64,000 bases of DNA, from assembly GCA_016182555.1 (NCBI GenBank), contig JACPGJ010000004.1, forward strand, positions 14,751 to 78,750, given 5' to 3'. The notes under the pieces were generated by a model. That model did no database searches. It was given only the letters and a program-made list of their open reading frames with translations, and was not told the DNA's origin. Source of the stretch: Candidatus Kerfeldbacteria bacterium (lineage in GTDB: Bacteria; Patescibacteriota; Patescibacteriia; UBA9570; XYC2-FULL-38-9). Position 1 is the stretch's first letter, and the number at the start of each line of letters is the position of its first letter. A program made the translations under genes and the position numbers. Below, one piece after another: positions 27,101 through 54,261 of the stretch.

Positions 27101-27116
27101 AAACCAGATAGTACCA

Positions 27117-30310: not shown

Positions 30311-30389
30311 AGACGTATAAAGTAAAATCTTAAAATGTGGCTAATGTTACTATAGCACACTCTCGAGATCTATATGACAAAAAATAGCT

Positions 30390-31364: not shown

Positions 31365-31367
31365 AAT

Positions 31368-34164: not shown

Positions 34165-34175
34165 AATACTATAGA

Positions 34176-35147
34176 CTATTCAGTTATAGACGCTCGAGAT
34201 AAATCTGGACCGGAGAAGAATGTAGCTCCTGTAAAAAATAGAAGAATCAGCAACGCATACGTATGGCTTTCAATAGCTCTATACTCTGCGTCTGTTTCTA
34301 GTGTTTCAAAAGATATGTAGTCATCAACAACACTCTGTAGCATTGCCCACGCTTCTGCATACTGAACCTCAAAATGACATAATTTCATACATAATGCAAC
34401 TTCAATAAGTGTATCGATATCGGTGCGCTGGCGGATTTCTTCAATATGATTCGCGAAATACATGATGATCCATTCGTATTGCCCAGGTAAATCGTGCTCA
34501 TAATACTGAGTATCCGCCAAAATAATATGGGTCATGCTATATATCACGGAATGATATTCGTCATCCGTGAGGTCCGCGACTAATTCATCACTGGCGTTAA
34601 AATAGATCTTTCGAAATAGCTGCTGTGCTTCTTCGAATAATGCTGAAGAAACGTGAATGTGTTTGAGAAAGGCTAACGTGTTGAATGTAAAAGAACTATT
34701 ATACCGAATCGCCTCTTCATTGATATACAGCGTTCTCAGCTCATCGAGAGACAATTGGGAAAGGAGTTGCGGATATTGCTGCGCATACATTGTCATATGC
34801 AATCCATATTTCTGTATAAAAAAAAGATGGTGGATAAAACGATCAAAAAATTGTAACTTGGGTTGCTGTTGATACAGGTCTTCTCTTTTTTTTCTGCGTT
34901 CACTGAATTTTTTATAATAATAATGACGCGTATAGGAAAACTGACCAGTTTTCAATAGCGCCAAATCAGCAACAATTCGCGGTTGCTTCACCAAAAAAAA
35001 ATAAAACGCGATAATTTTTTTATACTGCTCTTCACCGGTCACCTTATATGCTCGATAGGCAAAATGCGCCAGGTTATCTAGAGGAAGTGATGCACAGTTT
35101 CTATTGTAGATATCCAGAATGCGTTTTGAAGAGATTGCGCTATGCAT
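34176..35147 (-). CDS. Hypothetical protein (alpha-helical) co-operonic with the ATP-grasp genes
   Basis: 323-aa ORF, 11-nt gap to the downstream ATP-grasp gene, 14-nt gap from xseB. Confidence 0.45.
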   Translation of the reverse strand: MHSAISSKRILDIYNRNCASLPLDNLAHFAYRAYKVTGEEQYKKIIAFYFFLVKQPRIVADLALLKTGQFSYTRHYYYKKFSERRKKREDLYQQQPKLQFFDRFIHHLFFIQKYGLHMTMYAQQYPQLLSQLSLDELRTLYINEEAIRYNSSFTFNTLAFLKHIHVSSALFEEAQQLFRKIYFNASDELVADLTDDEYHSVIYSMTHIILADTQYYEHDLPGQYEWIIMYFANHIEEIRQRTDIDTLIEVALCMKLCHFEVQYAEAWAMLQSVVDDYISFETLETDAEYRAIESHTYALLILLFFTGATFFSGPDLSRASITE

Positions 35148-40042: not shown

Positions 40043-40630
40043 TTAGGTTGCATGAAATGTACGTAACGCTTGGCGAACCTGTTCTTCCACCGGCAATGTC
40101 GAGTCAATACCCTGTAATGCGGCCACGGCTTCAGACTGACTATACCCAAGTGCGAGTAACGCATCAATGGCATTCACTGTTGCACGTTCTGTACCCGCCA
40201 CCGAGGCGACACCGTCACTCGCCGCACCAGAAAACGCGACCTGTTCTTTTAAATCCAAAATCATTCGCTGTGCCGTCTTCTTCCCAATCCCGGAAATGCT
40301 CGTCAAAAATGTGGTATCACTATGAATAATAGCCCGCTTCACTTCGTCTGCTGAAAATTGCGACAAGACGGCTAACGCAATTTTTGGCCCCACGCCAGAA
40401 ACACTAATCAACTGCTCAAAAAACTGGCGGTCTTCTGCCACAGTAAATCCATACAAATCCAACGCGTCTTCACGAATATGTTGATACGTATATAATTCAA
40501 CCGCTGCACCAACAATTAACGATTCAGCAACACGCGAAGGAACACGAACACCATACCCAATACCCGCAACGAGCACAATCAGCTCATCTATATCCTTGGA
40601 ATGAAGCGTTCCAGTAATAAATCGAATCAT
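40043..40630 (-). CDS. ruvA: Holliday junction DNA helicase RuvA
   Basis: It has an N-terminal OB domain and an HhH domain (SGVGPKIALAVL...ISGIGKKTAQRMIL). Confidence 0.9.
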   Translation of the reverse strand: MIRFITGTLHSKDIDELIVLVAGIGYGVRVPSRVAESLIVGAAVELYTYQHIREDALDLYGFTVAEDRQFFEQLISVSGVGPKIALAVLSQFSADEVKRAIIHSDTTFLTSISGIGKKTAQRMILDLKEQVAFSGAASDGVASVAGTERATVNAIDALLALGYSQSEAVAALQGIDSTLPVEEQVRQALRTFHAT

Positions 40631-42105
40631 AGGGTTGTCATGGTTGGCGTCGCTGGTTTTGGAGTGCCATTCTTTTTTGCTGCGACTTTTTTGATAGAAC
40701 GCTTTGTGGGGTCAATCAAGAAACGAGTTAAATTCCTATTGCCAATGAGCAAAGGGTATTCTAACCGTGATCGATCGAAGACATTCGGTTCAATACTCAT
40801 TTTATGCCCCGCTAGGAAAATAGACAATGGAATATGAAAACGAATCGAGGCACCATGAGAAGAGTGCACTTTCGATATGCGGGCAATTTGTGGGTGGGCT
40901 TTGGGCAAACGTTGTTGCAAATCTTCTAATAACCGCTTGGCCTCTTCTTCACTTAATTCTTCCGGAATATGTTCTGCCGCGAATGCATCAATCGCGTCTC
41001 CGAAACCGAGTTCGCGAGCGAGCGCCATATCAATCGAACTATCGTCAGCTCCGGTATCAATTTTTGCTTTCACCTGTTTTTGCTTGTCTTCCACACCATA
41101 AACGGTCACCGACTCTACCAATCCCACCACCTGCCGACCCGTCACGCTTGTCACTTCAGCTTGAAAATGACCACCGAATAAATCTTTCGCAATTGTAATC
41201 CCATGTTCTGGGCTTTCAACACGCAATCCTTTAATACGATCCAAACGCTCACGCAAAGGAATCATGTTCGCCACTTGAATACCTAAACCTGGCCGCGCAT
41301 TTAATTCCAATACTACTGGCCCTTTTTTCTTATCGATCGAAATGTCCACCCGCGTGTACTTCAACTTTACCGATTGCGATGCGAGCACCGCTGTTTTCAA
41401 AATTTCTTCCCAATACGGAATACGCATACCGCGCAACAGTACATCATTATCTGGGTGACGTTCAATTTCTCTCTCTCCCCACCACGCCTTCATCACAACA
41501 TGTGTTGTTAAGCCGGTCGAGATATCAATACCGATTGCTAAGCCGCCTTGCATCAAATTTGCTTTTCCACCTGATTTTTTCGTGGGCACGCGAATAAAGG
41601 CCATCACCGGTACCAAATTATAGACAACCACACCAATATCTGGAATGCCGTATTCACCAAAACGTTTGAACAAGGGGTCAATGGATAAGCGTGATTCCAA
41701 AAAAGCAATATCGGGAGTGTTCAATAATGAATAATCACCGTCTAAAATGTCCGCTACATGCACCACAAAATCTTCTACCGTCAATTGCCGTTTATTGGTC
41801 GTTAGCCAATTTCCATTTTTCAATCGGTTGTAGACCACCACAATTCCTTCACCACCTAACCCACGGTTGGGTTTAATCACAAAACTGGAAGGTAGTGATT
41901 CCCAATCAAATTCACGCAATTCATGACGATTCCGAATGACGGCAATTAAATCAGCGGTAGGAATGCCGATGTTTTTCATACACGCTTTCGTCGCTAATTT
42001 ATCATCAGCGCGTTTGCGGGCAGATGGTTTATTCTCGCGCAGGTATATACTGCTGCGCGCATTGATACCAAGGACCGCTTTATGATTTTTCCACATGGCG
42101 CGCAT
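40627..42105 (-). CDS. Fusion protein: a RimK-like ATP-grasp ligase (ATPgrasp_ST type) joined to a retropepsin-like aspartic protease domain (so-called ATP-dependent zinc protease / RimB-like)
   Basis: 492 aa. The N-terminal domain has FVIKPNRGLGGEGIVVV...VLELNARPG. The C-terminal domain has IDTGADDSS (a DTG aspartyl protease motif). Confidence 0.7.
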   Translation of the reverse strand: MRAMWKNHKAVLGINARSSIYLRENKPSARKRADDKLATKACMKNIGIPTADLIAVIRNRHELREFDWESLPSSFVIKPNRGLGGEGIVVVYNRLKNGNWLTTNKRQLTVEDFVVHVADILDGDYSLLNTPDIAFLESRLSIDPLFKRFGEYGIPDIGVVVYNLVPVMAFIRVPTKKSGGKANLMQGGLAIGIDISTGLTTHVVMKAWWGEREIERHPDNDVLLRGMRIPYWEEILKTAVLASQSVKLKYTRVDISIDKKKGPVVLELNARPGLGIQVANMIPLRERLDRIKGLRVESPEHGITIAKDLFGGHFQAEVTSVTGRQVVGLVESVTVYGVEDKQKQVKAKIDTGADDSSIDMALARELGFGDAIDAFAAEHIPEELSEEEAKRLLEDLQQRLPKAHPQIARISKVHSSHGASIRFHIPLSIFLAGHKMSIEPNVFDRSRLEYPLLIGNRNLTRFLIDPTKRSIKKVAAKKNGTPKPATPTMTTL

Positions 42106-43780
42106 GTTTAAAAACGTTTCTAAAACGAATATATTCGACCAACCGCAAACCAGAAAATTTTCCGATAATGTAATTGAAGATCAACGTTAACAAAATGAGT
42201 TCCGGATAGGCAAGCAGCAAGGATTTAAATAATGTCCAATCTCCAATGAAATAACCCAACAACGATAACACCACTGTTTCAATCATCAGCTTGATCGCCG
42301 CTTTGTAGCCTTGTTCAATTTGCACCGAAACGAAATGTTCGGTCAGGACGGTCATAATGAGAATCGGGAAAATAGATATCGCGATGAAACCGGTTTTATG
42401 GAAATAGGCACCAACAAAAAAGAGCGCGAAAATAGCGAGGGCAATAATCGAGAGCACAATCGCCATACGTGGTAAATACAGCAAGCGAAATTTGCGTGCG
42501 AAAATACGCGATAATGTTCCCACCGCGACAACCACAAAAAATACGGTCAAGCCATATTTCAAACCAGTGGACAAAAATGACAATGCAATAACCGTTGGCG
42601 CAAAAATACCGAATGCTTTAATCCCGACTAGCTGGCGTGCGGTCGCAATAATCGTCGCCATCACCGGCAACATGAGAATCAAGAAGAGTGAGTTGATTGG
42701 CACACCGCGGTGGATCATAAAATTCATCGCGTAGGACATGAAATTCAGTGGAGTGAGGCGATCAAATCCACGAGCCGTATACGCACTAATAATTTGGTAC
42801 TCCGCCCGGACCTGCGATAATCGATCTTCCAACCGGCTCGATGTGCCCGCAGCGACCACGTCATCTAAAATATCGTTCGTCGACACCACAATAAATTTCG
42901 GTTGGACCACTTGAAATGCGCGCTGGGCACTTTTGATACTCGACACACGCGGTTGATTATTCACCGCCACAATCGCTTTGGAATCAAAATCGAAACGGTC
43001 AACAGCGGTGTTGCTCAGCGTAGAAATTTGCGATAAGGCGATAAGAGAGTTCAACCCAACATCACCAGAGGTCCAGGTGATAATAATATCTGATGCAATA
43101 AGATCTTCTTCACTTTTCAATAATTGCTGGGCAATATTTTGGACCGTCAAATATTCTTGATCTACGCCAGAATCACGAATGGGAATGACCAATGTTCCGC
43201 GGGTGAGTCCATAATCTTGTAACCGCTGAATCTCTTTTTCTGGCACACTCTGGTCAGAAATCAAAATCACTAGGTGTTCTTGAACAGACACGGTAATACT
43301 ATCTTCACTCGTCTGCGCATCTGCGCCTTCTCCAGTGGTCACCTGCAGTACCACTTTATACGTACCCGCTGATTTATACGCATGGGTTGCATCAATGCCT
43401 TTTGCGCTGGTGTTATCTCCAAAATCCCAGTGATAAAACAATGCGGCTCCTTCTGGCCCCGTCGATGCCGATGCATCAAACAACACCGTGCGACCAATGG
43501 CCACATTTCGATCTTTTCCCGCTTTTGCTTTCAGCAGCGTTTCCTCCACAATGACTTCTGGTATTGACTCTGAAGGGGGCGTTATTTCTTCACCAGTTTG
43601 CTGGTCTGTCGGCGTTGCTGATTCCTGAGCATGAACGTTTACTGGAATGAAGAGAAAGAACAAGGTGAATATGCTCAAGGATAGTATCGCTCGCGAAGCC
43701 CCCGAGAGCAAAAAAGCCCGATGCCTATGAGGGCTTTTTGCGTATGGGGTAGCGAGCACGCAGTTTCTATACATAATCAT
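42080..43780 (-). CDS. Membrane protein with signal peptide, extracellular PKD domain and a C-terminal polytopic (about 7 TM) domain of the type associated with ATP-grasp/retropepsin systems
   Basis: 566 aa. The PKD-like segment is FDASASTGPEGAALFYHWDFGDNTSAKG...YKVVLQVTT. Six or seven hydrophobic helices lie between residues 360 and 560. It overlaps the downstream fusion gene by 26 nt. Confidence 0.65.
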   Translation of the reverse strand: MIMYRNCVLATPYAKSPHRHRAFLLSGASRAILSLSIFTLFFLFIPVNVHAQESATPTDQQTGEEITPPSESIPEVIVEETLLKAKAGKDRNVAIGRTVLFDASASTGPEGAALFYHWDFGDNTSAKGIDATHAYKSAGTYKVVLQVTTGEGADAQTSEDSITVSVQEHLVILISDQSVPEKEIQRLQDYGLTRGTLVIPIRDSGVDQEYLTVQNIAQQLLKSEEDLIASDIIITWTSGDVGLNSLIALSQISTLSNTAVDRFDFDSKAIVAVNNQPRVSSIKSAQRAFQVVQPKFIVVSTNDILDDVVAAGTSSRLEDRLSQVRAEYQIISAYTARGFDRLTPLNFMSYAMNFMIHRGVPINSLFLILMLPVMATIIATARQLVGIKAFGIFAPTVIALSFLSTGLKYGLTVFFVVVAVGTLSRIFARKFRLLYLPRMAIVLSIIALAIFALFFVGAYFHKTGFIAISIFPILIMTVLTEHFVSVQIEQGYKAAIKLMIETVVLSLLGYFIGDWTLFKSLLLAYPELILLTLIFNYIIGKFSGLRLVEYIRFRNVFKHARHVEKS

Positions 43781-45207: not shown

Positions 45208-46884
45208 ATGCCAGAGCACCCATTCAACACACTCAAACACTATTGGCGTCAATATCCGTTACTTGGAACCGCGACCGTATGCTGTTTGTCCGCACTTGCT
45301 TATGCATGGTGGATTGCCGCACCCACCTTTACGGATCCCGATTCGTTCTACCATATACAGATGACACAGCTCATCATGAAGCATCACCGTGCGGTTACCA
45401 ATTTTGTTTGGCTTCCGTATACCACCCTCGCCCATTCTTACGTTGACCATCATTTTCTCTACCACATTTTTCTCATTCCCTTTTTTCTCGTATTCAATGC
45501 CGTGCTCGGCATGAAAATCGCCACCGTGGTGCTTGCCGCGTCTACCAGCGTGTTATTTTACCTTGTTCTGCGTTCACTCAATGTTCGCTACAGCTTCCTA
45601 TTCACCTTATTGTTAATCACCACAGAAGGATTTTCCTTTCGCATAGGCCTCTCCAAAGCGCCCAGTTTCAGTTTTCTGTTTATGATGGCGGGCGCATACG
45701 CCATTATTCACTACAAACCAAAACTCATCGCGATTCTTTCTTTCTTTTTTGTGTGGTCATACGGCGGTTTTTTACTCATGCTCATTTTAACCGGCGTTCA
45801 TGCAAGCGTTGGTTTCTTACGTGCGTATCTTCGTGGAGTACCACTCACGCGACAGGAAAAAAAAGAACGCCTAGTCATGGTTACCGGAGCATTCTCGGGC
45901 ACGCTCATGGGTCTGCTGATTCACCCCTCATTTCCGCAACACCTGCGCTTTTATTGGGAACAAATTATTCAAATTGGTTTAGTCAATTACCGGGGTGTAA
46001 TTGGTGTTGGCGGTGAATGGTATCCCGCGAATGTTCCCAATCTCATTGGCGAACACACCATCTTTTTTTTAGTGCTCATTATCAGTATGATCGCTTTTGG
46101 TTTCACCGCCGGAAAACAACGCGCCTATAGCTGGACCATCGGTGGCATGTTTTTTTTCTTCTTCGTGTTCACGCTCAAATCTCAACGCTATATTGAATAT
46201 GCCATGCCCTGGGGCTATCTCTTCTCTGCGTGTGCCTTACAAGAAAGTGGCTGGCTGAACCATGTACACCACGTTGTGCAACGAGCGCTCTATCGTTCCA
46301 CCGCTCATGTGTTCACGCTCAGCGCCGCGCTACTCCTTATTGCGTATGGGTTGTTTATTATTCCTGGCATGATGATTGATACCAGCCTGAACCTTGAGCA
46401 CGACCTCCACCGTGGCAGATCGGTTGATGAATTTGCGGCAGTAGGAAAATGGCTCCGCGACCACAGCACCACCGGTGACATTGTTTTTCACAGCGATTGG
46501 GATGAATTTCCAGCGTTATTTTACCAAGTACCAAAAGACCGGTTTATTGCCGGCCTAGATCCCACATTTTTTTACCGAGAGCACCCAGCAGATAACGACC
46601 TCTATTGGGAATGGGTGAATATCACCACCGGAAAACAAAGCGACCAGCTTCTAGAAACGCTGCAACAACATTTTCATGCGCGCTTTGTCTTCATCGCCGA
46701 CGGACACAACAGTATGCGTGCTAACTTCATTCGTGATGGTCGTTTCCGAAAAGTGTATGAAGATGATGAAGCGACTATTTTCCGGGTTCCGCGCCGTGCA
46801 CAAGACGTGGAGCAGAGCCAAACGGCCGATGATACACCAATAACTCCGGTGTCGCCTGTTCCAGAATCAAATCCTGCGCTGTAA
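45208..46884 (+). CDS. Polytopic membrane protein, glycosyltransferase-like (PMT/ArnT-type fold suspected)
   Basis: 558 aa with about 12 TM helices and a DPDSFYH motif near the N-terminus. Its 3' end overlaps the convergent downstream gene by 110 nt. Confidence 0.55.
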   Translation: MPEHPFNTLKHYWRQYPLLGTATVCCLSALAYAWWIAAPTFTDPDSFYHIQMTQLIMKHHRAVTNFVWLPYTTLAHSYVDHHFLYHIFLIPFFLVFNAVLGMKIATVVLAASTSVLFYLVLRSLNVRYSFLFTLLLITTEGFSFRIGLSKAPSFSFLFMMAGAYAIIHYKPKLIAILSFFFVWSYGGFLLMLILTGVHASVGFLRAYLRGVPLTRQEKKERLVMVTGAFSGTLMGLLIHPSFPQHLRFYWEQIIQIGLVNYRGVIGVGGEWYPANVPNLIGEHTIFFLVLIISMIAFGFTAGKQRAYSWTIGGMFFFFFVFTLKSQRYIEYAMPWGYLFSACALQESGWLNHVHHVVQRALYRSTAHVFTLSAALLLIAYGLFIIPGMMIDTSLNLEHDLHRGRSVDEFAAVGKWLRDHSTTGDIVFHSDWDEFPALFYQVPKDRFIAGLDPTFFYREHPADNDLYWEWVNITTGKQSDQLLETLQQHFHARFVFIADGHNSMRANFIRDGRFRKVYEDDEATIFRVPRRAQDVEQSQTADDTPITPVSPVPESNPAL

Positions 46885-48295
46885 TCAATTGCGCTAATCG
46901 TTGTTGTGCGCCAGGGAAACGCGATAACTCTTGCTGATCAACAACCAACCAATCGATATATGCTGGAGGAATGTAGGGTTCATTCGAATAATGTTGAGTG
47001 CCGTGCAATAAGTGTATTGTTGGATATATCCGCTCTCTGTTCGATAGTTGAGGATACAGCACCGGAGAAACCATCACCGCATCATCTGGAGCAATGTCTT
47101 GAAGCACACTCACCATCGTTGCTCGGTCTCGATCGTGACGATGCATGAATAATACGCCGAAGCGATACCATGGGCCGAAAAGAGTTACCTGCACCAGAAT
47201 AATTGCTAGGAGACCCATACGGCACATCGAATATAGGTAAATGTAGTCTGCTTTCGTGTCCAACCAAGTGAATAGTTTCGTCACACCGTAGAGTGAAGCA
47301 ATCATCAGCCACGGAAAAATAATCGCGGAATAATGCGCATGAAAAAATGCATCAAATAACGATCGATCGATCAACAAATATTCTACAGCTGGCCCAGCCA
47401 ATGGCAAAAGATAACGCGGACGAAGCAATGGTAAAAAGGCACATGAGGAAAAAAGCAATACAAGAACAAGGACATGATCTTCGCCAAATGCCCCATGAAG
47501 TGTTTGGATTGGATGAGAGAACATAAATCGACCATATTCCCAAGGTCCATTCCCCATCCAAGAATAAAATGCACCAAATTTTAGGGCCTGTTTTGGAGCA
47601 AGAGCTGCACCGAAACGTGCCATGATAATGAACCACAGCACACTCACCGCCATGATACCAAAACCGATCCAACGCCATCGCTTGTTGTTTTGCATACCCT
47701 GACCAAATACCAATAACAGCAATCCCACACCAGATGTCATGACTGCCACATCATCACGCACCAACAACAATAGAATAAATATCACTATGGTACGAAGACG
47801 CTGGCCGCTTATCATACACAACCACCACCACAACGTAAGCGGCAACACAAAAGAGAGCGCATGAAATTCAAATAACACTACCGCATGAGTCAACGGATGC
47901 AAAAGATATACCACCACACTGACAAGCGCCAACCGATCACGCCCACGCACAGACAAACCTTGGGCAATTTGCCGCGCCAAGAGATAGGTGGGAATAGCGC
48001 CGGTCGCGATAACCGCGGTTTGCAATACCAACAACGTCATCGGGTGTTGCACCAACGCATACACCGGGAGTAATAACAGCACGCCCCATTCACGATGATC
48101 AACCAGATATGAATACGGATTAAAAGAATATTGAAACCACCGCCCATGCACGCTATTCCAAAATACTTGATTATAAATGCCTAAATCATATTGGTTGTAA
48201 AAAAAGAAATGATACTGAAACCAGCAAGCTACTATAGAAAAAACAAAAAAAACTATTACCAGCCTCCATACACGTTTTGGAACATTCAACAACAT
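46775..48295 (-). CDS. DUF2079-family polytopic membrane protein (predicted membrane glycosyltransferase-like)
   Basis: 506 aa. YNQYDLGIYNQ motif. Multiple TM helices. Confidence 0.6.
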   Translation of the reverse strand: MLLNVPKRVWRLVIVFFVFSIVACWFQYHFFFYNQYDLGIYNQVFWNSVHGRWFQYSFNPYSYLVDHREWGVLLLLPVYALVQHPMTLLVLQTAVIATGAIPTYLLARQIAQGLSVRGRDRLALVSVVVYLLHPLTHAVVLFEFHALSFVLPLTLWWWLCMISGQRLRTIVIFILLLLVRDDVAVMTSGVGLLLLVFGQGMQNNKRWRWIGFGIMAVSVLWFIIMARFGAALAPKQALKFGAFYSWMGNGPWEYGRFMFSHPIQTLHGAFGEDHVLVLVLLFSSCAFLPLLRPRYLLPLAGPAVEYLLIDRSLFDAFFHAHYSAIIFPWLMIASLYGVTKLFTWLDTKADYIYLYSMCRMGLLAIILVQVTLFGPWYRFGVLFMHRHDRDRATMVSVLQDIAPDDAVMVSPVLYPQLSNRERIYPTIHLLHGTQHYSNEPYIPPAYIDWLVVDQQELSRFPGAQQRLAQLITAQDLILEQATPELLVYHRPFGSAPRLVHGAEPGK

Positions 48296-48327: not shown

Positions 48328-48362
48328 AAAAAACCCGCTTCTTAAGAAACCGCGGGTTTTTT
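48328..48362. terminator. Bidirectional intrinsic terminator (stem AACCCGC/GCGGGTT flanked by an A-run and a T-run)
   Basis: The sequence AAAAACCCGCttcttaagaaacCGCGGGTTTTTT lies between convergent genes. Confidence 0.5.
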
Positions 48363-48378
48363 ATATTGCTGTTGTGTA

Positions 48379-48780
48379 CTAGACAAAATAGACCATACCT
48401 TGAATATTAGCGTTGGTAGACTCAGCCAACTTACCAATAACGTATGTTGCGAGCGCCCAAGAGATCATCACGAATGCCAAACCGATAACAGCGGCAACCA
48501 ATAATTTCTTGGCTTTATCTACTTTACCAGGGTCTCCTGCTGCAGTCATCCATTTGAAACCACCAATAATAATGATGATGACGGCGACCAGCGCGAGTAA
48601 CGAAAGTGCGAGATTTACGATATCAGTCACAATATTCACTGGGTCATTTGTCCCAAGATTATCAGAGATTTCATCATAACCATCACCGCTCGTCGTAATC
48701 TGAGCGAATGCTGTTGTTGCTGTTGCCACCCATCCTAATGTGATAGCGGCACCAGAAGCGAATTTTTTTGAAATTTTCAT
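48379..48780 (-). CDS. TrbC/VirB2-like (T4SS-type) pilin family protein, paralog 1
   Basis: Signal peptide, then a hydrophobic helix, then GGFKWMTAAGDPGKVDKAKKLLVAAVIGLAFV. A strong SD (GGAGGTGA, 6-nt spacer) precedes the ATG at 48780. The ORF is open to 48873. Confidence 0.65.
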   Translation of the reverse strand: MKISKKFASGAAITLGWVATATTAFAQITTSGDGYDEISDNLGTNDPVNIVTDIVNLALSLLALVAVIIIIIGGFKWMTAAGDPGKVDKAKKLLVAAVIGLAFVMISWALATYVIGKLAESTNANIQGMVYFV

Positions 48781-48862
48781 TGTTTCACCTCCTTTCTGAA
48801 AGTTAATGAATAAAAACAGAGGTTTCTGTATTCCTGTATTGTGACAGATCATGAAATAACGG

Positions 48863-49219
48863 TCAATATCCAAGATATTTCACCACAGACTTTGTGACCG
48901 CCCATGCAATCATCACCAGCACGATCCCAAACATCGCACCCATTAACAAGCCACGGGCCTTATCTGCCACCGGGTGATTCCCTGAAGATGTTAACAATTT
49001 AAACGTGCCGACCATTAAACAGATAATCGATATCAAAGCAATCAACGATAATATCAAATTCACGGTTGTAATAATCAGATCACCGGTTCCTGAATCATCT
49101 GGCGTATCAACCGCTGTATTATCCGGCACATATCCACCGTTGATATTCGTTTGCGCAGAAGCGATTGCTGGCGCAACAAAAAAAATACCAACAAAAAAAA
49201 TACTACTCACTATACTCAT
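48863..49219 (-). CDS. TrbC/VirB2-like pilin family protein, paralog 2
   Basis: Signal peptide (MSIVSSIFFVGIFFVAPAIASA) and conserved core (MVGTFKLLTSSGNHPVADKARGLLMGAMFGIVLV). The ORF is open to 49522. Confidence 0.6.
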   Translation of the reverse strand: MSIVSSIFFVGIFFVAPAIASAQTNINGGYVPDNTAVDTPDDSGTGDLIITTVNLILSLIALISIICLMVGTFKLLTSSGNHPVADKARGLLMGAMFGIVLVMIAWAVTKSVVKYLGY

Positions 49220-49328
49220 CTTGGTGATACGTGAAACACCTATATACATACAATAAAAAAATGCACTCTTATTGTGACAAAGAATATCATTGCGGTCAAT
49301 GTAGCGGAACGTTGCTAAACAGATAAAG

Positions 49329-50102
49329 ATGTGGTATAGTGTATTCAATATGATGCAACGAATATTTTTTATTCTGGTCGGAATCTGCGCTCCTATTGCT
49401 GCCTCTGCCGCAACTTCCAAATTATTGAGTGGGGATACTGGGAAAGCATTGGATAGTACCGGTCTTGGCAAAACCGACCCGGTCAAAGCTACCGCATTTA
49501 TTATCAATACCGTTTTGGGCATTATCGCGTTGTTGGCGGTTGCATTACTTATTTATGGTGGGTTTCGGTATATGTCATCTCGCGGAAATCCTCAGGAAGT
49601 AGATAAAGCAAAAAATGTACTCAAGGCAACCATTGCTGGTTTGGTATTAGTCATGGTGGCGTGGTCCATTACTACCTACGTCATCGGAAAAATTCAAAAA
49701 GCAACCAACGGAGAATCTACTTCTTCGACACCAACGTCAGAAGAAGACCCAGATGTGCAGCAAGATACTGAAGATAATACCTACGAAATAGGATATAATG
49801 ATGGGTGGAATATCGGATATGGTGATGAAGGTGAGGGCGGATATGCAGACGGGTATGGCAATGGGTATGAGACCGGTTATAATACAGGATATACAGAAAC
49901 GGGTATATATCAAACAAGCTACGATGATAGTGATAAAGGAACAGATGTGGAATATGACGAATCTATTGGTTTAGGTGATTATGCTGATGGGTATGCTGAT
50001 GGAAAAAATGACGGCGAGCAATCGGGATATTATTATGGTTATGAAGATGGATATGCAGACGGGTACGACACAGGATGGGCTAAGAAAGTGAATGGTTTAT
50101 GA
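49329..50102 (+). CDS. TrbC/VirB2-like pilin family protein, paralog 3, with a C-terminal Gly/Tyr/Asp-rich repetitive tail
   Basis: Core GGFRYMSSRGNPQEVDKAKNVLKATIAGLVLV. The tail of about 120 aa is built from GY(A/N/E)DG-type repeats. Confidence 0.65.
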   Translation: MWYSVFNMMQRIFFILVGICAPIAASAATSKLLSGDTGKALDSTGLGKTDPVKATAFIINTVLGIIALLAVALLIYGGFRYMSSRGNPQEVDKAKNVLKATIAGLVLVMVAWSITTYVIGKIQKATNGESTSSTPTSEEDPDVQQDTEDNTYEIGYNDGWNIGYGDEGEGGYADGYGNGYETGYNTGYTETGIYQTSYDDSDKGTDVEYDESIGLGDYADGYADGKNDGEQSGYYYGYEDGYADGYDTGWAKKVNGL

Positions 50103-50494
50103 TAAACACTCTCGTAAAAAAACAATGGCACATCATCTTCTCTCGTCTATTGTTTATTGTTGTTGGTAGCTGTTATCTATCCTTACCAGCCCATGCTACT
50201 GAATTGATTGATGAAGATGCTGCCAGTAGCGCTACTACACTTGGCACACAATCACCCGTAGAAGTCGCGGCGTTAATTATTAGCGCATTTCTTGGTTTGC
50301 TGGGCATTATCGCGGTCACCTATATTATTTATGCCGGTTTTTTGTGGATGACTGCCGGTGGTAACCCACAAAAAGCAGACAAAGCGAAGGGTATTTTGAA
50401 ATCGGCGGTGATTGGGTTAGTGTTGATCATGGCTTCATACAGTCTCGCGACCTACGTTTTTGGCGCATTAGAACAAGCAACCGGTTATCAATAA
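50099..50494 (+). CDS. TrbC/VirB2-like pilin family protein, paralog 4
   Basis: Core AGFLWMTAGGNPQKADKAKGILKSAVIGLVLI. ATGA overlap with the upstream gene. Confidence 0.65.
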   Translation: MINTLVKKQWHIIFSRLLFIVVGSCYLSLPAHATELIDEDAASSATTLGTQSPVEVAALIISAFLGLLGIIAVTYIIYAGFLWMTAGGNPQKADKAKGILKSAVIGLVLIMASYSLATYVFGALEQATGYQ

Positions 50495-50495
50495 T

Positions 50496-50876
50496 ATGTA
50501 CAAAACACGCACCATGAAAAAATGGATTCCTCTCGTTTTTGAGAGTGTTCTATTGTTCACGGTCGGGTTCATTCTCTTGCACCCGTACATCGCATTTGGT
50601 GTTGAATTTGATCCAGGCGGAACCCTCAAAAGCTCCACCGAACTTTCGAATACCGATGCGAATACCTATGTATTCACGATTATTAAAGGTTTTTTAACCC
50701 TTGTTGGAGTCGTGGCGTTGGTGCTCATTATCTATGGTGGTTTTATTATTCTTATTGCGCGTGGTGACAACAATAAAATTCAAAAAGGAAAAGATACACT
50801 CTTTTGGGCGATTATTGGTACACTCATTATTCTCGCTTCCCTCGGTATTGTAAATTTCCTCGAAGGAATTTTGTAA
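50496..50876 (+). CDS. TrbC/VirB2-like pilin family protein, paralog 5 (more divergent)
   Basis: Core GGFIILIARGDNNKIQKGKDTLFWAIIGTLIIL. Confidence 0.55.
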   Translation: MYKTRTMKKWIPLVFESVLLFTVGFILLHPYIAFGVEFDPGGTLKSSTELSNTDANTYVFTIIKGFLTLVGVVALVLIIYGGFIILIARGDNNKIQKGKDTLFWAIIGTLIILASLGIVNFLEGIL

Positions 50877-50882
50877 GACGTA

Positions 50883-51224
50883 TTACCCTAACGCCTTGAA
50901 GAGCGTGCTGGCAAGAGCGTAAGAACCAAAAATGATAATCAGGCCGACGAGTGCCCAGGTAAGGGTATCGCGGCCTTTTTTAACGTAGTTGGAATCGCCA
51001 TGAGAAATCAGCATCATCACCCCCCCATAAATAAAAATAAGCAACGTAATGCCGCCCACTACACCAAGAAGTGTTTTGATTACATTCCCAATTAAGGCAT
51101 TTGGGTCTTTTGCGCCATTCTCACCCAATGGATTTGCTAGCTCACTCGCAAAGACGGGTAAGGCTGTACAAAAATACCAAACAACGAAAGCGGTGAATAA
51201 GCGATGAAAAAATGTTTTGCTCAT
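50883..51224 (-). CDS. TrbC/VirB2-like pilin family protein, paralog 6
   Basis: Core GGVMMLISHGDSNYVKKGRDTLTWALVGLIII. Confidence 0.6.
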   Translation of the reverse strand: MSKTFFHRLFTAFVVWYFCTALPVFASELANPLGENGAKDPNALIGNVIKTLLGVVGGITLLIFIYGGVMMLISHGDSNYVKKGRDTLTWALVGLIIIFGSYALASTLFKALG

Positions 51225-51243
51225 ACAGACAAATAATTATTGA

Positions 51244-51993
51244 TTAAGGTGTGCAGCACACTTGACCCGTGGGACACAACGATTCATCTGTACTTTCTGT
51301 GCCGATACAATAGTTATTATCACCATCCACATCTTTAACACAATAGGCGCCTGTATTCTGTGTATTTCCGAGGTACTGACAATCGGGCATACAAGAGCGG
51401 CCGAGACACACACAATTCTCTGCACAACTCTCTGTCGTGCATGTTTGCCCATCTGGCGTACCAGAGCATACTTCCGTATCATCAGATTCGTCTGCAACAG
51501 TGCTGGTTGAAGAAGCTCCGGTATCTTTTGGCGCACGTTCTTTGCAATATTCCGACCAATGGTTTTTCCCAAATAGTTTCACATCTGTCCCAATTTTCGA
51601 CGCATCTAACCCCAAAAATGCAGCGATAATAAAATTGATTAACACATACGACACAAACACCAGCGTAATACCAATAATCGACCCCGTCATCACGGCTTTG
51701 CCTTTATTTACACGGTCAGGCTTACCGGCAGAAATCACAAAATAGAACCCTCCAAGGACAAACGTAAATAATGCGACGCCGCTTGCCCATTGTTGAATCA
51801 CCGAAGCCGCGTTGCCAACAAAGTCGAGTATATCACACGTATCACAACTTCCATCTCCTACGGCACAATCGGGTAAAAATGTTTGGTCTGCAGCATGCAC
51901 ATCTGGAGTAATGCTCAAGGAGAACCCAAAGAGAATGAGGGCGATGAAGAAAGAAAAAATGAAACGACGATTCTTCATATTATTGCTTTTCAA
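51244..51993 (-). CDS. TrbC/VirB2-like pilin family protein, paralog 7, with a Cys-rich C-terminal tail
   Basis: Core GGFYFVISAGKPDRVNKGKAVMTGSIIGITLV. The C-terminal 110 aa carry about 14 Cys. An alternative start is the Met at 51978. Confidence 0.6.
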   Translation of the reverse strand: MKSNNMKNRRFIFSFFIALILFGFSLSITPDVHAADQTFLPDCAVGDGSCDTCDILDFVGNAASVIQQWASGVALFTFVLGGFYFVISAGKPDRVNKGKAVMTGSIIGITLVFVSYVLINFIIAAFLGLDASKIGTDVKLFGKNHWSEYCKERAPKDTGASSTSTVADESDDTEVCSGTPDGQTCTTESCAENCVCLGRSCMPDCQYLGNTQNTGAYCVKDVDGDNNYCIGTESTDESLCPTGQVCCTP

Positions 51994-53377
51994 TCGTCAA
52001 CTGTACTTTCTGCGCACCAATATTCACAATGTCTTCCATGGGCATCGTTCGTTGATTTGCTGTGTCAACCATTTCAGCAAAGGCTTCAATCGCCGCATCT
52101 GGATCAAAACCATGGTACCAGGTTTTTGCTGTCAACGCTTGTTGCACATAAGAACCCAAAATAGGATCTCGCTGTAACTCAGAAATCAATGCGCGGCGTG
52201 CAGAAATACGGCCTGTCGTTTCGGTAAACTTTCTATTTTGTTCTTCTGAAGCCGCAAAATGAATAAAATTCCATGCGTGTTCTTTTTGTGGACTATTGAT
52301 AAACACGGTCTCCACCGGATAACTGGCAATAGTGACAGGATTATCCGGGTTGGTTTGCGGGAATGTGGTAAATGAAAAATTCAAATTCGGAGCCCGCTGT
52401 TCAATGACTGGTAAATCGTGATAATAGCCAATGTAAAAACCTAAATTTCCAGCAGTAAATGATTCCAATGCATCCGGTTTTGTATCGTCCCACGTATATG
52501 GTTTCACTGCCGGGTTGCTAAAGGCCGTATAGAAATTCAACGCTAATGCACCCGGTAATTGTTTGTTTGCGTCTTCCAGAGAAAATGTCACTTGCCCACG
52601 ATCTGTTGCCATTGTTGCACCGGTTTGCATCATAATGGTTCCGAGAATATCAAAAAAGTAGGGGACATTATTCGCAGTCCCCAACGCCGCCGCTGGTTGC
52701 ACTACTTTACGATCTTTATCTAAAACTACCATCGCCTCCACGGCATTCACAAACTCTTGCATGGTTTTCGGTGGAACAGCAATATTCGCTCGAGCGAGCA
52801 AATCATAATTATAAAATAATGTCAGTGTATCAAAACTCAATGGCAACCCATACACCTGATCATCAAATACCACATCCTTTGGTACGGCATCAACATAGCT
52901 ATCTTTGAGACGGCTTGCTCCAATGAATGTCACTGTTCGTTCATCTATGACGGTTTTACTGCCAAACAATGTTTTTTTCGTTTGCGGTCTAGTAATCTTC
53001 ACACTTTGCGGCATCGGTGCAATAAATTCCTTAAACTTCCCCAAACGCATGTTGGGAACAGAAAAAATATCCGGCCCCTCTCCTTTCGCCCACGCCGAAA
53101 CTAATGCATCTTCATATTCATCTTTCTTCAATGTCTTGTAGGTAATGCTCACATTAGGATATTGTGCTATATATGCCGCAATCGTATCTGCAAAATCATC
53201 TTCACTATCTTCGCTGCGCCAAATCAACAGTTTCACACCAGCAGGAGGCGTGACATCTTTGGAACACCCCGCACCAACAGTGCTCAGTACCACAAAAAAA
53301 AGTGACAGTACAAAGAATGCTTTCCGAACAGCGGGAAAGCGAAGATGGCGGCGTATTGAGTGAAGAGAAGATATCAT
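51980..53377 (-). CDS. Extracellular solute-binding lipoprotein (ABC transporter SBP family 1-like)
   Basis: 465 aa. Signal peptide with a lipobox-like VGAGC. The overall similarity is to sugar-type SBPs. Confidence 0.65.
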   Translation of the reverse strand: MISSLHSIRRHLRFPAVRKAFFVLSLFFVVLSTVGAGCSKDVTPPAGVKLLIWRSEDSEDDFADTIAAYIAQYPNVSITYKTLKKDEYEDALVSAWAKGEGPDIFSVPNMRLGKFKEFIAPMPQSVKITRPQTKKTLFGSKTVIDERTVTFIGASRLKDSYVDAVPKDVVFDDQVYGLPLSFDTLTLFYNYDLLARANIAVPPKTMQEFVNAVEAMVVLDKDRKVVQPAAALGTANNVPYFFDILGTIMMQTGATMATDRGQVTFSLEDANKQLPGALALNFYTAFSNPAVKPYTWDDTKPDALESFTAGNLGFYIGYYHDLPVIEQRAPNLNFSFTTFPQTNPDNPVTIASYPVETVFINSPQKEHAWNFIHFAASEEQNRKFTETTGRISARRALISELQRDPILGSYVQQALTAKTWYHGFDPDAAIEAFAEMVDTANQRTMPMEDIVNIGAQKVQLTIEKQ

Positions 53378-53394
53378 GCGTATATGTATTTTTA

Positions 53395-54261
53395 TTAAAG
53401 AGAATCGATATAGTTACGCACATCTGGACCAATATCCTTGTGTTTCAGTGCAAATGAAATCACCGCTTTTACATATTCTAACTTATTGCCACAATCACGA
53501 TACACGCCTTCATATTGCTTTGCGTATCCTGTACGTGTGTGAATAAGTGCACGAACTGCATCGGTTAATTGAATCTCTCCACCATTACCCGGCTTCACTT
53601 GCTCTAAATGTTCAAAAATATCTGGCGTCAGTAACCAACGTGCGGTGGCGGCGTAGGTAGATGGCGCTTCCTCCACAGATGGTTTTTCAATAATATCTTT
53701 TAAACGAAAAATTCCCTCTTCAATCGTTTCTACCGGGTCAATTACTCCGTACCGGTTCACTGTTTCTCGTTCCACTTGAATGACTCCCATCACCGGCCCA
53801 TCAAAACGCATATACACATCGATAAGCTGTTGGCTGGCTGGAATATCTGATTCAATAATGTCATCACCACCGTAAACAATAAACGGTTCATCGCCTACCA
53901 CCTCTTTTGCCAGCAACACCGCATGACCAAACCCGAGCGGCTCTGCCTGGCGAACATAAATAAAATTTGCCATGCTTGATAGGGCTTTGATTTTGGAAAT
54001 CTCTTCCTGCTTCTGCCGCTGTTCTAAAATACACTCCAACGCAGAATCACGATCAAAATATTGTTCAATCGCTATTTTATCTTCGCTCGTAATAAAAATA
54101 ATATCTTCAATACCGGATTGAACCGCTTCTTCAACGATATATTGAATCACTGGCGTATCAACCAATGGCAATAATTCCTTTGGCACCGCTTTAGTGGCAG
54201 GAAGAAAACGAGTTCCTAAGCCCGCAACCGGAATAACGGCTTTACGAATTTTTTTTGGCAT
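53395..54261 (-). CDS. galU: UTP--glucose-1-phosphate uridylyltransferase
   Basis: AVIPVAGLGTRFLPATKAVPKELLP N-terminus and VEKP motif. Confidence 0.9.
   Translation of the reverse strand: MPKKIRKAVIPVAGLGTRFLPATKAVPKELLPLVDTPVIQYIVEEAVQSGIEDIIFITSEDKIAIEQYFDRDSALECILEQRQKQEEISKIKALSSMANFIYVRQAEPLGFGHAVLLAKEVVGDEPFIVYGGDDIIESDIPASQQLIDVYMRFDGPVMGVIQVERETVNRYGVIDPVETIEEGIFRLKDIIEKPSVEEAPSTYAATARWLLTPDIFEHLEQVKPGNGGEIQLTDAVRALIHTRTGYAKQYEGVYRDCGNKLEYVKAVISFALKHKDIGPDVRNYIDSL

Follow-up and report, generated by a model that had tools for sequence, protein, structure and literature searches.

Seven paralogous VirB2/TrbC-superfamily pilins form the distal part of a conserved galU-SBP-pilin locus in a Candidatus Kerfeldbacteria genome

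The chromosome of a Candidatus Kerfeldbacteria bacterium encodes seven paralogous pilins of the VirB2/TrbC superfamily (T4SS_pilin). The array is the distal part of a conserved locus that consists of galU, the gene of an SBP lipoprotein, a cysteine-rich pilin (P7), a P6-type pilin and further pilins. Probably, these pilins act as specialised subunits of a conjugative-type filament, with the SBP as their partner. Divergent VirB2-like pilin arrays in Patescibacteria have already been published (Wang, 2023; Quinonero-Coronel, 2025), and the new aspect here is the position of the array, remote from the genes of any secretion machine and in tight linkage with the gene of an orphan sugar-binding lipoprotein. 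An SBP linkage of pilin arrays is absent from the text of the published survey (Quinonero-Coronel et al., 2025; PMC12102498), and the conserved galU-SBP-pilin linkage, the special P7 subtype, the positional orthologues in other lineages and the lack of a VirB4-like ATPase near related loci all go beyond what the first-pass annotation of this DNA had described.

The window, i.e., the whole stretch of DNA analysed, comprises 64,000 nt of contig JACPGJ010000004.1 (GCA_016182555.1, positions 14,751-78,750) from this MAG, an ultrasmall genome of the Patescibacteria (CPR), and is a housekeeping stretch. Exactly seven pilin-type ORFs lie on both strands between 48379 and 51993 (P1-P7, Table 1), all of them where the first-pass annotation had placed them. 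A profile built from the seven cores recovers exactly P1-P7 among the 761 six-frame ORFs of the window (E between 1e-31 and 1e-35). As the next-best ORF only reaches E = 0.7, the membership of the array is not due to chance. The alignable core consists of helix 1, (G/A)G(F/V)...G(N/D)xxxxxK(A/G)(K/R) and helix 2, and the motif quoted in the first-pass annotation holds as an approximate consensus of P1-P7 and is not exact in each protein. Core identity ranges from 17 to 50% (mean 30%), and the exposed mature N-segments and C-tails are wholly unlike each other, as had been remarked of the regions outside the shared layout. Other contigs with these genes are all 100% identical to the window, leaving no strain variation to measure.

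Table 1. Genes and candidate regulatory features of the locus; coordinates are positions in the window.
Feature	Coordinates	Strand	Description
Intrinsic-terminator-like hairpin and U-run	48335-48366	-	Predicted end of the P2-P1 transcription unit (RNA fold)
P1	48379-48780	-	133 aa pilin; PF18895 48.1 bits, NF045849 40.8 bits
P2	48863-49249	-	128 aa, or 118 aa from 49219; most divergent short pilin; PF18895 22.4 bits
Divergent intergenic region P2(-)/P3(+)	49250-49328	.	Promoter-like sites both ways, consensus matches only
P3	49329-50102	+	257 aa, or 250 aa from 49350; PF18895 48.8 bits
P4	50099-50494	+	131 aa; MBI2410530.1, HYV32_01355; PF18895 48.9 bits
P5	50496-50876	+	126 aa; PF18895 38.0 bits, NF045849 40.4 bits
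P6	50883-51224	-	113 aa short pilin; PF18895 35.3 bits, PF04956 34.4 bits
P7	51244-51978	-	244 aa, or 249 aa from TTG at 51993; PF18895 23.6 bits
Orphan sugar-type SBP lipoprotein (SBP_bac_1/8)	51980-53377	-	Lipobox ..GAGC; Pfam SBP_bac_8 and SBP_bac_1
galU-like UTP-glucose-1-phosphate uridylyltransferase	53395-54261	-	First gene of the conserved locus; Pfam NTP_transferase E = 5e-28

The T4SS_pilin/VirB2-like assignment made from the letters alone is borne out by the scores against PF18895, PF04956 and NF045849. Five of the seven proteins (P1, P3, P4, P5 and P6) reach the gathering cut-off of PF18895 (T4SS_pilin, 26.6 bits). P2 and P7 fall just under it, and are tied to the family through the window profile (E = 7e-31 and 1e-31, respectively). 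The cut-off of PF04956 (TrbC/VirB2, 27.9 bits) is passed by P6 alone, with P5 (21.3 bits) and P4 (18.1 bits) below it and the other four without a match. NF045849, the NCBIfam model of the Mbov_0395 family pilin-like conjugal transfer protein (cut-off 40 bits), is barely passed by P1, P3 (41.1 bits) and P5, while the remaining paralogs score below. The ICE setting of the latter family is not found here, the window being without integrase, relaxase or VirB4. PF18895 is present in every one of the 120 P4 homologues, which in some sources go by the name of pilin or VirB2.

PF18895 proteins are small and have a signal peptide followed by two long hydrophobic helices with a short polar loop between them, a layout that is seen in hydropathy, charge and AF2 models alike. 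All of P1-P7 begin with a hydrophobic signal segment that has an AxA-type site, and a net-positive loop separates their two long hydrophobic helices. The shared order is thus Sec signal peptide, helix 1, short basic loop and helix 2, in agreement with the signal peptide and two hydrophobic helices reported before. The mature N-segment is acidic in all except P3, where it is neutral. AF2 yields a confident two-helix hairpin for P4 (mean pLDDT 82.3; helices 3-27, 53-84 and 90-128) and for P7 (pLDDT 81-89 in the hairpin and 41-63 in the tail). In fold searches the hairpin is not distinguishable from thousands of generic helical hairpins. Type IV pilus (PilA-type) pilins were considered and ruled out, as the proteins have Sec-type AxA-like signals and two helices instead of a class III G|F..E leader; P1-P7 also lack any T4P Pfam match.

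The gene junctions indicate an operon-like packing with translational coupling at three points. The SBP stop codon lies 1 nt ahead of the P7 ATG, the P3 stop and P4 start overlap (ATGA), and P4 and P5 share TAATATG. A strong AGGAGGTG ribosome-binding site, as read from the sequence, precedes P1, and the 128-aa gene call of P2 was taken from an identical Logan contig. The region between P2 and P3 contains promoter-like sites that are consensus matches, namely TTGACC-17-CACAAT with TG on the minus strand (49299-49271) and TTGCTA-17-TATAGT with TG on the plus strand (49312-49340). The latter reaches 12 nt beyond 49328 into the first annotated P3 start, and is compatible only with the start at 49350. 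The minus-strand element recurs upstream of P1 (48837-48867; 31-mer, 74% identical), and the terminator-like hairpin below P1 has a 13-bp stem with a folding energy of -19.9 kcal/mol (z = -4.44; 0 of 200 shuffles fold as well). P5 and P6 are of the same sequence type (39% core identity). The P3 C-terminal tail of about 130 aa is rich in Gly, Asp, Tyr and Glu with a net charge of -27; weak Yae1_N and FliH matches of P3 stem from the Gly repeats of this tail.

To place the array in its wider context, we used 80 related loci from other species that were found through the SBP alone, 74 of which had enough downstream sequence. A pilin starts between -200 and +300 nt from the SBP stop in 70 of these 74, and a galU homologue lies immediately upstream of the SBP in 42. 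The same gene order is found in Uhrbacteria, Magasanikbacteria and a further CPR MAG (L007), and the complete Falkowbacteria chromosome CP066698.1 carries the same locus type. In Kerfeldbacteria UBA9570 (L010) the place of galU is taken by the non-homologous UDPGP family PF01704. The galU-like protein of the window scores slightly under the cut-off of TIGR01099 galU (322.7 vs. 326.8 bits). The nearest solved relatives of the SBP are sugar or maltose ABC-transporter SBPs, and its orthologues share 35-40% identity and keep G-x-G-C; in the window and in three related loci (L003, L005 and L007), the SBP has no neighbouring genes for an ABC permease or ATPase. Related loci hold from 1 to 16 pilin copies, with a mode of 6-7, and related polyproteins hold 2-8 pilin domains per chain. 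Arrays of close homologues without any SBP also exist, such as L089, which adjoins dnaA.

The paralogs show partial positional orthology across CPR lineages. In other candidate phyla, 33 of 45 loci have the best match of P7 as the pilin directly behind the SBP and 30 of 45 have that of P6 as the second pilin (the P6/P5 type), and the P1/P3 type holds a fixed position in 23-25 of 45. P7, P6 and the P1/P3 type are thus represented by positional orthologues in other lineages of the CPR, so that a good part of the paralogy is old.

P7 is a distinct, conserved cysteine-rich pilin subtype next to the SBP. An N-terminal LPxC..GxCxTCD is followed by the pilin hairpin and LFGxxWxxxC, and the C-terminal domain, of about 100 aa, has some 11 conserved Cys and is homologous across lineages. 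At E <= 1e-3, an exhaustive HMMER search returned 5294 homologues, with many full-length ones among them. The Cys pattern is kept in 21 orthologues and in the SBP-adjacent pilins of other loci, and at least two Cys precede helix 1 in 93% of SBP-adjacent pilins vs. 8.5% of 281 others. One may speculate that disulfides between the three N-terminal Cys and the Cys just after helix 2 tie the ends of P7 together.

As had been stated for VirB4, VirB6 and VirD4 in the first-pass annotation, Pfam scans detected no VirB4, VirB6, VirD4, VirB11 or type IV pilus genes in the window; they covered 50 further ORFs, including all of at least 200 aa outside the array and leaving out a handful of shorter ones. 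The T4SS machinery (VirB3, VirB4, VirB6 and others) with which PF04956 pilins are expected to be encoded was not seen in the 64-kb window. The surroundings of the 80 related loci, out to 10 kb, are free of VirB4-like and VirD4-like ATPase genes, so the locus has no genetic tie to a T4SS machine.

These observations may be combined as follows. Each pilin would enter the membrane through Sec and have its signal peptide cleaved, by analogy with VirB2, TraA and CedA1/TedC, giving a hairpin whose Lys-rich loop is cytoplasmic and whose N- and C-termini are both outside. A putative monoderm-type T4SS (VirB4, VirB6, VirB3-like) encoded elsewhere in the genome would extract the pilins, probably with lipid, and assemble P1-P7 into a filament or stalk of the conjugative type where the cell touches a host cell. 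The paralogs would be specialised subunits and not interchangeable antigenic variants: the short pilins (P1/P3/P4 type and P5/P6 type) may be bulk subunits, while P7, with its possibly disulfide-stapled ends and Cys-rich C-terminal domain, and P3, with its acidic Tyr/Gly tail, may be low-copy subunits that display extra domains outside. The SBP lipoprotein, presumably co-translated, would be the partner of P7, most plausibly as a glycan-binding receptor or adhesin, or else as an assembly factor. We infer these roles of the SBP, P7 and P3 from gene order and domain layout only. None of the cited papers shows an image of a filament built of PF18895 proteins. The archaeal CedA1/TedC VirB2-like pilins form pili that contain lipid and arise from a single membrane (PMC9905601), and VirB2-like filaments therefore need no outer membrane.

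The pilins could instead be seven fast-evolving, interchangeable major-pilin variants, expressed alternately or together, which evade recognition or match host strains. The same idea has been put forward for the arrays of Patescibacteria with reference to Bartonella and Anaplasma, whose tandem VirB2 paralogs are proposed to serve immune evasion or a wider host range (PMC12102498), and the low core identity, the entirely different exposed segments, the range of copy numbers among related loci and the three separate transcription units, each with promoter-like sites, would all suit the antigenic or host-range diversification suggested in the first-pass annotation. However, the fixed positions of P7, P6/P5 and P1/P3 in other candidate phyla show that these types are older than the divergence of the lineages concerned. 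A stable modal copy number is also seen, and the array and its vicinity, including the flanks of the opposite-strand block, lack inverted repeats and switch elements as well as recombinase genes. Diversification is therefore an unlikely main explanation. The SBP-pilin locus, the P7 subtype, the positional orthologues and the lack of a nearby VirB4-like ATPase favour old, specialised subunits over fast antigenic variation.

Another possibility is that these proteins are not pilus subunits, but small two-helix membrane subunits that work with the SBP lipoprotein in a sensing, uptake or surface-display complex independent of a T4SS. The SBP-pilin junction is present in 95% of loci, yet none of the 80 has a VirB4-like ATPase within 10 kb; T4SSs of monoderms are mostly without pilins (PMC12102498), the hairpin fold is generic, and polyproteins with several pilin domains fit poorly with a simple helical filament subunit. 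We still find a non-pilus complex rather improbable, given the significant profile similarity to TrbC/VirB2 and the ICE pilin-like family, the close-homologue arrays that lack an SBP, and an SBP without adjoining ABC permease or ATPase genes. Moreover, a pilin is found near virB4 in 1135 of 1948 assemblies (PMC12102498), and the Saccharibacteria counterpart is a pilin series within a T4SS cluster which is essential (PMC10633639). The locus might also derive, as a remnant or as cargo, from an ICE, plasmid or similar conjugative element with its own mating-pilus genes, since conjugative elements typically carry VirB2-like pilins and P1, P3 and P5 marginally pass NF045849, which is built on Mycoplasma ICE proteins. 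This is very improbable considering the housekeeping neighbours (rpoBC, Mur ligase, ruvABC, yebC, galU, rlmH-like), the lack of an integrase, a relaxase, a coupling protein and VirB4 in the window, the match in G+C content between the array (0.41-0.43) and the window, and the synteny of the locus across many species.

The proposed filament of specialised subunits can be compared with several known systems. The likeness to multi-pilin loci of CPR/Patescibacteria pointed out in the first-pass annotation agrees with the CPR origin of the window and with reports of such arrays of the T4SS_pilin family (PMC12102498; PMC10633639; PMC12857230). Arrays in Southlakia epibionticum ML1 (SEML1_0006-0019) and Nanosynbacter lyticus TM7x and the 441 arrays in PMC12102498 belong to the same phylum-level group and Pfam family as the array described here, and likewise contain tandem, structurally similar and sequence-divergent pilins without a relaxase. 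In that survey an array is at least two PF18895/PF04956 genes in Patescibacteria, in tandem or with one non-pilin gene between them and of low mutual identity, which also describes the seven adjacent genes in this MAG. The surveyed arrays have 2-11 genes each with a mean identity of about 25%, compared to seven and 30% here. The Southlakia pilin genes, which are essential, lie inside the T4SS cluster (PMC10633639), whereas the present array has no VirB4-like gene within 10 kb, follows galU and an orphan SBP lipoprotein, holds a long Cys-rich pilin and is split over both strands. Saccharibacteria T4P multi-pilin loci are also multi-gene and may likewise serve as a host-contact surface filament, but their pilins are an unrelated family in which PilD cleaves a class III leader (G|F/M..E) and there is only one helix, at the N-terminus.

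VirB2 (T-pilus), TrbC (RP4) and TraA (F) share the signal peptide, the two hydrophobic helices, the short basic loop and the expected topology with both termini outside; at the profile level this likeness is seen in P6, which passes PF04956, and in the weak matches of P4 and P5. These systems usually have one pilin gene adjoining virB3/virB4 and a diderm envelope, as opposed to seven genes without adjacent machinery in a monoderm-type cell. While head-to-tail cyclisation joins the ends of T- and P-pilins, P7 might, speculatively, use disulfides instead. The archaeal CedA1/TedC pilins (Ced/Ted) are VirB2-like according to their published description, but their genes adjoin VirB4-like and VirB6-like genes, with one pilin per system and a function in DNA import. 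The Mycoplasma ICE protein Mbov_0395/MMCAP2_0565 is a small two-helix protein of a wall-less monoderm that P1, P3 and P5 match at threshold level; it is ICE-borne and single-copy, whereas the present locus is chromosomal, multi-copy and outside a mobile element. Finally, the virulence T4SSs of Bartonella and Anaplasma resemble the array in the tandem amplification and divergence of VirB2. In these intracellular pathogens, which are diderm, the paralogs form part of the virB loci, while several paralog types of the present array recur in different lineages, and this conservation speaks for fixed roles.

The seven ORFs of the array, P1 to P7, can be aligned over a core of ~85 residues that consists of helix 1, (G/A)G(F/V), a loop with G(N/D)xxxxxK(A/G)(K/R), and helix 2. 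Core identity among them is 17-50% (mean 30%), with P1, P3 and P4 (45-50%) and P5 and P6 (39%) forming sub-groups and P2 and P7 as outliers. A profile of the seven cores recovered exactly these ORFs among the 761 six-frame ORFs of the window (E = 1e-31 to 1e-35), and no eighth pilin was found there, the next-best ORF not falling below E = 0.7. Because the profile recovers P1-P7 alone, the array is real, complete and not due to chance, which confirms the seven related ORFs that the first-pass annotation had placed at 48379-51993. The motif it proposed for them is a fair consensus, although an exact match is not present in every copy. P4 is the same protein as MBI2410530.1 (HYV32_01355), and P7 the same as MBI2410533.1 (HYV32_01370), both annotated as "hypothetical protein" in a Candidatus Kerfeldbacteria MAG (Patescibacteria group) and both recorded on one 146,769-bp contig. 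The only other contigs with these genes, L001 and L002 from Logan, are 100% identical to the window.

Coordinates of the pilin array and the adjoining genes, with the position at which each pilin most often finds its best match in other arrays
Feature	Position in window	Strand	Length (aa)	Alternative start	Best-match position (loci)
P1	48379-48780	-	133		3 (25/45)
P2	48863-49249	-	128	49219 (118 aa)	scattered
P3	49329-50102	+	257		3 (23/45)
P4	50099-50494	+	131		scattered
P5	50496-50876	+	126		2 (24/45)
P6	50883-51224	-	113		2 (30/45)
P7	51244-51978	-	244	51993 (TTG)	1 (33/45)
SBP	51980-53377	-			
galU	53395-54261	-			

PF18895 (T4SS_pilin) is the best match for all seven proteins. Its gathering score of 26.6 bits is exceeded by five of them, with P2 (22.4) and P7 (23.6) slightly under, and the earlier assignment as T4SS-type pilins is borne out by this HMM check. 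P6 also scores above the cut-off of PF04956 (TrbC/VirB2; 34.4 bits vs. 27.9). NF045849, a model of the Mbov_0395 family of pilin-like conjugal transfer proteins from Mycoplasma ICEs, is marginally passed by P1, P3 and P5 (40.4-41.1 bits vs. a cut-off of 40), and its matches to P2, P4 and P6 are sub-threshold. PF18895 is present in all 120 database homologues of P4, to which a few sources give a pilin or VirB2 label. PHROGs returned no meaningful phage or holin match, and the sole matches of the profile in PDB sequences, "Pizza" designer repeats aligned through a 21-residue motif, were dismissed as spurious. Membership in the pilin family is thus founded on profile similarity and architecture rather than on a discriminating structural match.

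Each of P1-P7 begins with a hydrophobic signal segment that ends in an AxA-like site, and two hydrophobic helices (~25-35 residues each) come after it. Net charge is negative in the mature N-segment (-2 to -5; 0 in P3) and positive in the loop between the helices (+1 to +3), and by the positive-inside rule the termini should therefore be outside and the loop cytoplasmic. The AlphaFold2 model of P4, from a 77-sequence alignment, is a confident hairpin (mean pLDDT 82.3; helices 53-84 and 90-128), and the core hairpin of P7 is likewise confident (pLDDT 81-89). P3 carries a C-terminal tail of ~130 aa that is rich in Gly, Asp, Tyr and Glu and has a net charge of -27.

The minus-strand gene order is galU, SBP, P7 and P6, where SBP is an orphan sugar-type solute-binding lipoprotein (SBP_bac_1/8). 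A single base separates the stop codon TAA of SBP from the ATG of P7, and P6 starts 19 nt after P7. On the plus strand, the stop and start codons of P3, P4 and P5 overlap or abut (ATGA; TAATATG). P2 and P1 terminate at a strong hairpin-plus-U terminator (z = -4.4), and both are preceded by a promoter-like TTGACC-17-(TG)CACAAT in a 31-nt direct repeat (48837-48867 and 49270-49300; copies 74% identical). Each of these two duplicates seems to have retained a promoter of its own. An invertible switch for the opposite-strand block P3-P5 was rejected, since only short, low-identity inverted repeats are present. The immediate neighbours of the array are a 558-aa multi-pass membrane protein (45208-46884) with no Pfam or NCBIfam match and, convergent with it and overlapping by ~110 nt, a DUF2079 membrane protein (46775-48295). 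The former was discarded as a conserved partner because it has no similarity to the uncharacterised proteins of ~550 aa that flank the arrays of L003 and L007, two loci with P4 homologues.

Pfam scans of 50 further window ORFs, including every non-array ORF of at least 200 aa, identified ordinary chromosomal genes such as rpoB/rpoC, a Mur ligase, ruvA/ruvC, yebC, DUF2079 and galU, together with a SPOUT methyltransferase, lexA, IMPDH, an ECF sigma factor and an AbiE toxin-antitoxin pair. No VirB4, VirB6, VirD4, VirB11, relaxase, integrase or type IV pilus genes were found among these 50 ORFs, and the reported lack of VirB4, VirB6 and VirD4 is correct for this window. The array has the G+C content of the window, and no tRNA genes or Rfam families at gathering score occur anywhere in the 64 kb.

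Some other window genes deserve mention. Four RimK/GSH-S-like ATP-grasp paralogs (29345-30310, 30390-31364, 32200-33153 and 33154-34164), interrupted by a LytR_cpsA_psr gene (31368-32237) and followed by a DUF3541 gene (34176-35147), suggest that the run at 29345-35147 is a peptide-ligase cluster, which may serve to modify the cell envelope. The ruvA-ruvC interval (40627-43780) holds a PKD and 7TM_transglut membrane protein (42080-43780) and an ATPgrasp_ST and Zn_protease fusion (40627-42105). The AbiEii toxin/AbiEi antitoxin pair (27117-28506) adjoins a PD-(D/E)XK/Cas4-like nuclease (28573-29331) and an RNase_H_2/PolB-exo-like gene (26300-27136). The gene at 20353-23313 encodes a subtilase (Peptidase_S8) of 986 aa that also has a fibronectin type III domain and is probably a secreted or surface protease.

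The genomic settings of three close P4 homologues (from Uhrbacteria, Magasanikbacteria and the CPR MAG locus L007) were the entry point for the comparison of loci. All three share the order NTP_transferase (GalU), an SBP_bac_1/8 protein of 457-465 aa, and 5-11 pilins, with no T4SS genes within 10 kb. Their SBPs and that of the window are orthologues, with 35-40% identity over the full length and a conserved G-x-G-C lipobox, and their closest solved relatives are binding proteins of sugar or maltose ABC transporters. No permease or ATPase genes lie beside SBP in the window or the three loci. We then used the SBP alignment as sole bait in species-representative genomes and scored the 80 resulting loci, the best 80 of 439 SBP relatives, with the window-derived pilin profile. 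Kerfeld-, Uhr-, Falkow-, Magasanik-, Buchanan- and Kuenenbacteria and other Patescibacteria are represented among them. Of the 74 loci in which at least 400 nt follow the SBP gene, 70 (95%) have a same-strand pilin ORF starting -200 to +300 nt from the SBP stop, a figure that applies to the orthologous clade and not to all sugar SBPs, as the loci are the best of the 439 relatives. The other four have pilins as well, at a distance of 0.5-4 kb.

GalU lies directly upstream of SBP in 42 of the 74 loci. In the Kerfeldbacteria UBA9570 locus L010, it is replaced by a non-homologous UTP-glucose-1-phosphate uridylyltransferase of the UDPGP family (PF01704; L010:592-1776) of equal function. This replacement hints that the supply of UDP-glucose is important for the locus. 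GalU may provide UDP-glucose for glycosylation, or the link may be merely historical. The 46 loci with at least 9 kb downstream usually have 6 or 7 pilins (range 1-16). The both-strand layout of the window is unusual, as opposite-strand pilins occur in only 3 of these 46 loci; the other Kerfeldbacteria locus, L010, has it too. In Falkowbacteria-type loci, SBP is accompanied by one pilin and six others follow 4.5 kb onward past unrelated genes. This split is seen in L022 (Falkowbacteria CP066698.1, 9974-18917) and about ten similar loci, where the first pilin is of the Cys type. The 4.5-kb gap was rejected as a T4SS site, since it encodes an HTH protein, a methyltransferase, UPF0102, GT2 and a 528-aa uncharacterised protein. 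An apparent SBP-pilin fusion ORF in locus L080 proved to be an artefact of a masked run of N.

The pilin adjacent to SBP is of a particular kind. At least two Cys are found in the 60 residues before helix 1 in 93% of 72 SBP-adjacent pilins vs. 8.5% of 281 others from the same loci, and a C-terminal extension of at least 40 aa in 31% vs. 4%. The extension of P7 aligns with those from Uhrbacteria and other lineages, down to the terminal ...LCPxG..(V/Q)CC. In an alignment of 21 P7 relatives, the Cys of LPxC..GxCxxC before helix 1 and a W...C directly after helix 2 are invariant, and ~11 Cys are conserved in the C-terminal domain (pLDDT 41-63 for this tail in the P7 model, too low to compare folds). 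P7 is thus a distinct, conserved pilin subtype. A word-indexed homologue search with P7 returned the query itself only, while exhaustive HMMER against 1.84 billion representatives gave 5,294 relatives at E <= 1e-3, many of them full-length with 31-46% identity. The empty search therefore reflects a sensitivity limit, and for short, divergent membrane proteins such a result is no evidence of orphan status.

The paralogs are also old. When the best BLASTP match of each window pilin was located in each of 45 loci with at least five pilins, most pilins had a preferred position (see table), and at least three pilin types are therefore older than the split between these candidate phyla. P5/P6 and P1/P3/P4 resemble products of later duplication within a type. 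Antigenic or host-range diversification, as suggested by the first-pass annotation, is rather improbable, though it may apply to such later duplicates. The pattern of best-match positions fits a specialised subunit set better than rapid antigenic turnover.

The 80 loci were also surveyed for ATPases. We collected all ORFs that reach 450 aa and contain a Walker A motif; these 50 ORFs fell into eight similarity clusters, whose representatives were identified by Pfam as SMC, ComM/Mg-chelatase-like, GyrA, ABC exporter, DnaA, IF-2 and two surface proteins. With no VirB4-like or VirD4-like ATPase among these ORFs, the SBP-linked arrays stand apart from the T4SS ATPase throughout. Close homologues are also encoded in settings that lack SBP: seven pilins adjoin dnaA/dnaN in L089, and L090 has a single pilin. 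The lineages sampled here presumably belong to the ABY1 class by GTDB taxonomy. Since this class has T4SS loci, next to comF, recG and radA (PMC12102498), a machine encoded elsewhere in the source genome is plausible.

The boldest reading of the locus is tentative, and we rate its chances as rather low. SBP and a dedicated Cys-rich pilin, with disulfide-tied ends and a Cys-rich C-terminal domain, would form a conserved co-translated module in Kerfeld-, Uhr-, Falkow-, Magasanik-, Buchanan- and Kuenenbacteria that forms the tip or base of a T4SS-type filament and recognises host glycans there. The remaining old paralogs would make up its heteromeric shaft, giving a "conjugative" pilus of several kinds of subunit, built by a monoderm cell and with no genetic coupling to its ATPase. 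In the mechanism that we consider the most likely, and fairly probable, Sec would export each pilin, the signal peptide would be cleaved, and the hairpins would be pooled in the membrane, from which a distant monoderm-type T4SS could extract them into a filament or stalk at host contact. The short paralogs would be the shaft subunits, and P7 with its Cys-rich domain and P3 with its acidic tail could be low-copy subunits that display their extra domains outside. The SBP lipoprotein would be the partner of P7, most plausibly as a glycan-binding receptor or adhesin, or else as an assembly factor.

The same genes could instead encode a non-pilus membrane complex that acts with SBP, in line with the absent machinery and with the polyproteins of 2-8 tandem pilin domains per ORF found in related CPR genomes (L068:16246-17571, L053:5002-5631, L010:5827-6726, and the proteins P0149 of 606 aa and P0184 of 820 aa), which sit poorly with the role of a plain filament subunit, except if they undergo processing. 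Profile homology to pilins and the Saccharibacteria data, where VirB2-like pilins were unexpected members of an essential T4SS, speak against such a complex, and we consider it quite improbable. That the array derives from a mobile element is hardly credible, as this is contradicted by its housekeeping, syntenic context.

The resemblance to Patescibacteria multi-pilin loci seen at first reading holds, and the phenomenon is published (PMC10633639; PMC12102498; PMC12857230). Quinonero-Coronel et al. (2025; PMC12102498) applied PF04956 and PF18895 to 3,035 Patescibacteria genomes and reported VirB2-like pilins and VirB4 in 1,948 assemblies, in 1,135 of which a pilin is near virB4. They described 441 arrays of 2-11 pilin genes with a mean identity of 25% (maximum 54%) and already offered the antigenic or host-range idea. 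A 2025 review restates these arrays and speculates on a pilus-like conduit (PMC12857230). The window array is therefore a further example that by itself adds little. SBP is not mentioned in the text of PMC12102498, and our literature search found no SBP-pilin combination; what is new is modest, namely a conserved module of SBP and Cys-pilin and paralog types that are fixed. Together with the conserved galU-SBP-Cys-pilin order and the absence of machinery nearby, they make pilin function easier to test. Should the SBP-pilin module prove to be functional, nutrient or host sensing would be tied to a filament of the conjugation type in a large, uncultivated part of bacterial diversity.

The mechanism we propose is modelled on VirB2/TraA and on the archaeal CedA1/TedC pili, lipid-containing filaments that arise from a single membrane (PMC9905601). 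Gram-positive T4SSs are normally without a pilus (Wang et al., PMC10633639). The topology predicted for P1-P7, with termini outside and the loop in the cytoplasm, is the same as that of VirB2 and TraA. As the N-segment and the post-helix-2 segment of P7 should both be outside, their four Cys could, speculatively, staple the two ends together, and such a putative disulfide staple might be to P7 what head-to-tail cyclisation is to T- and P-pilins.
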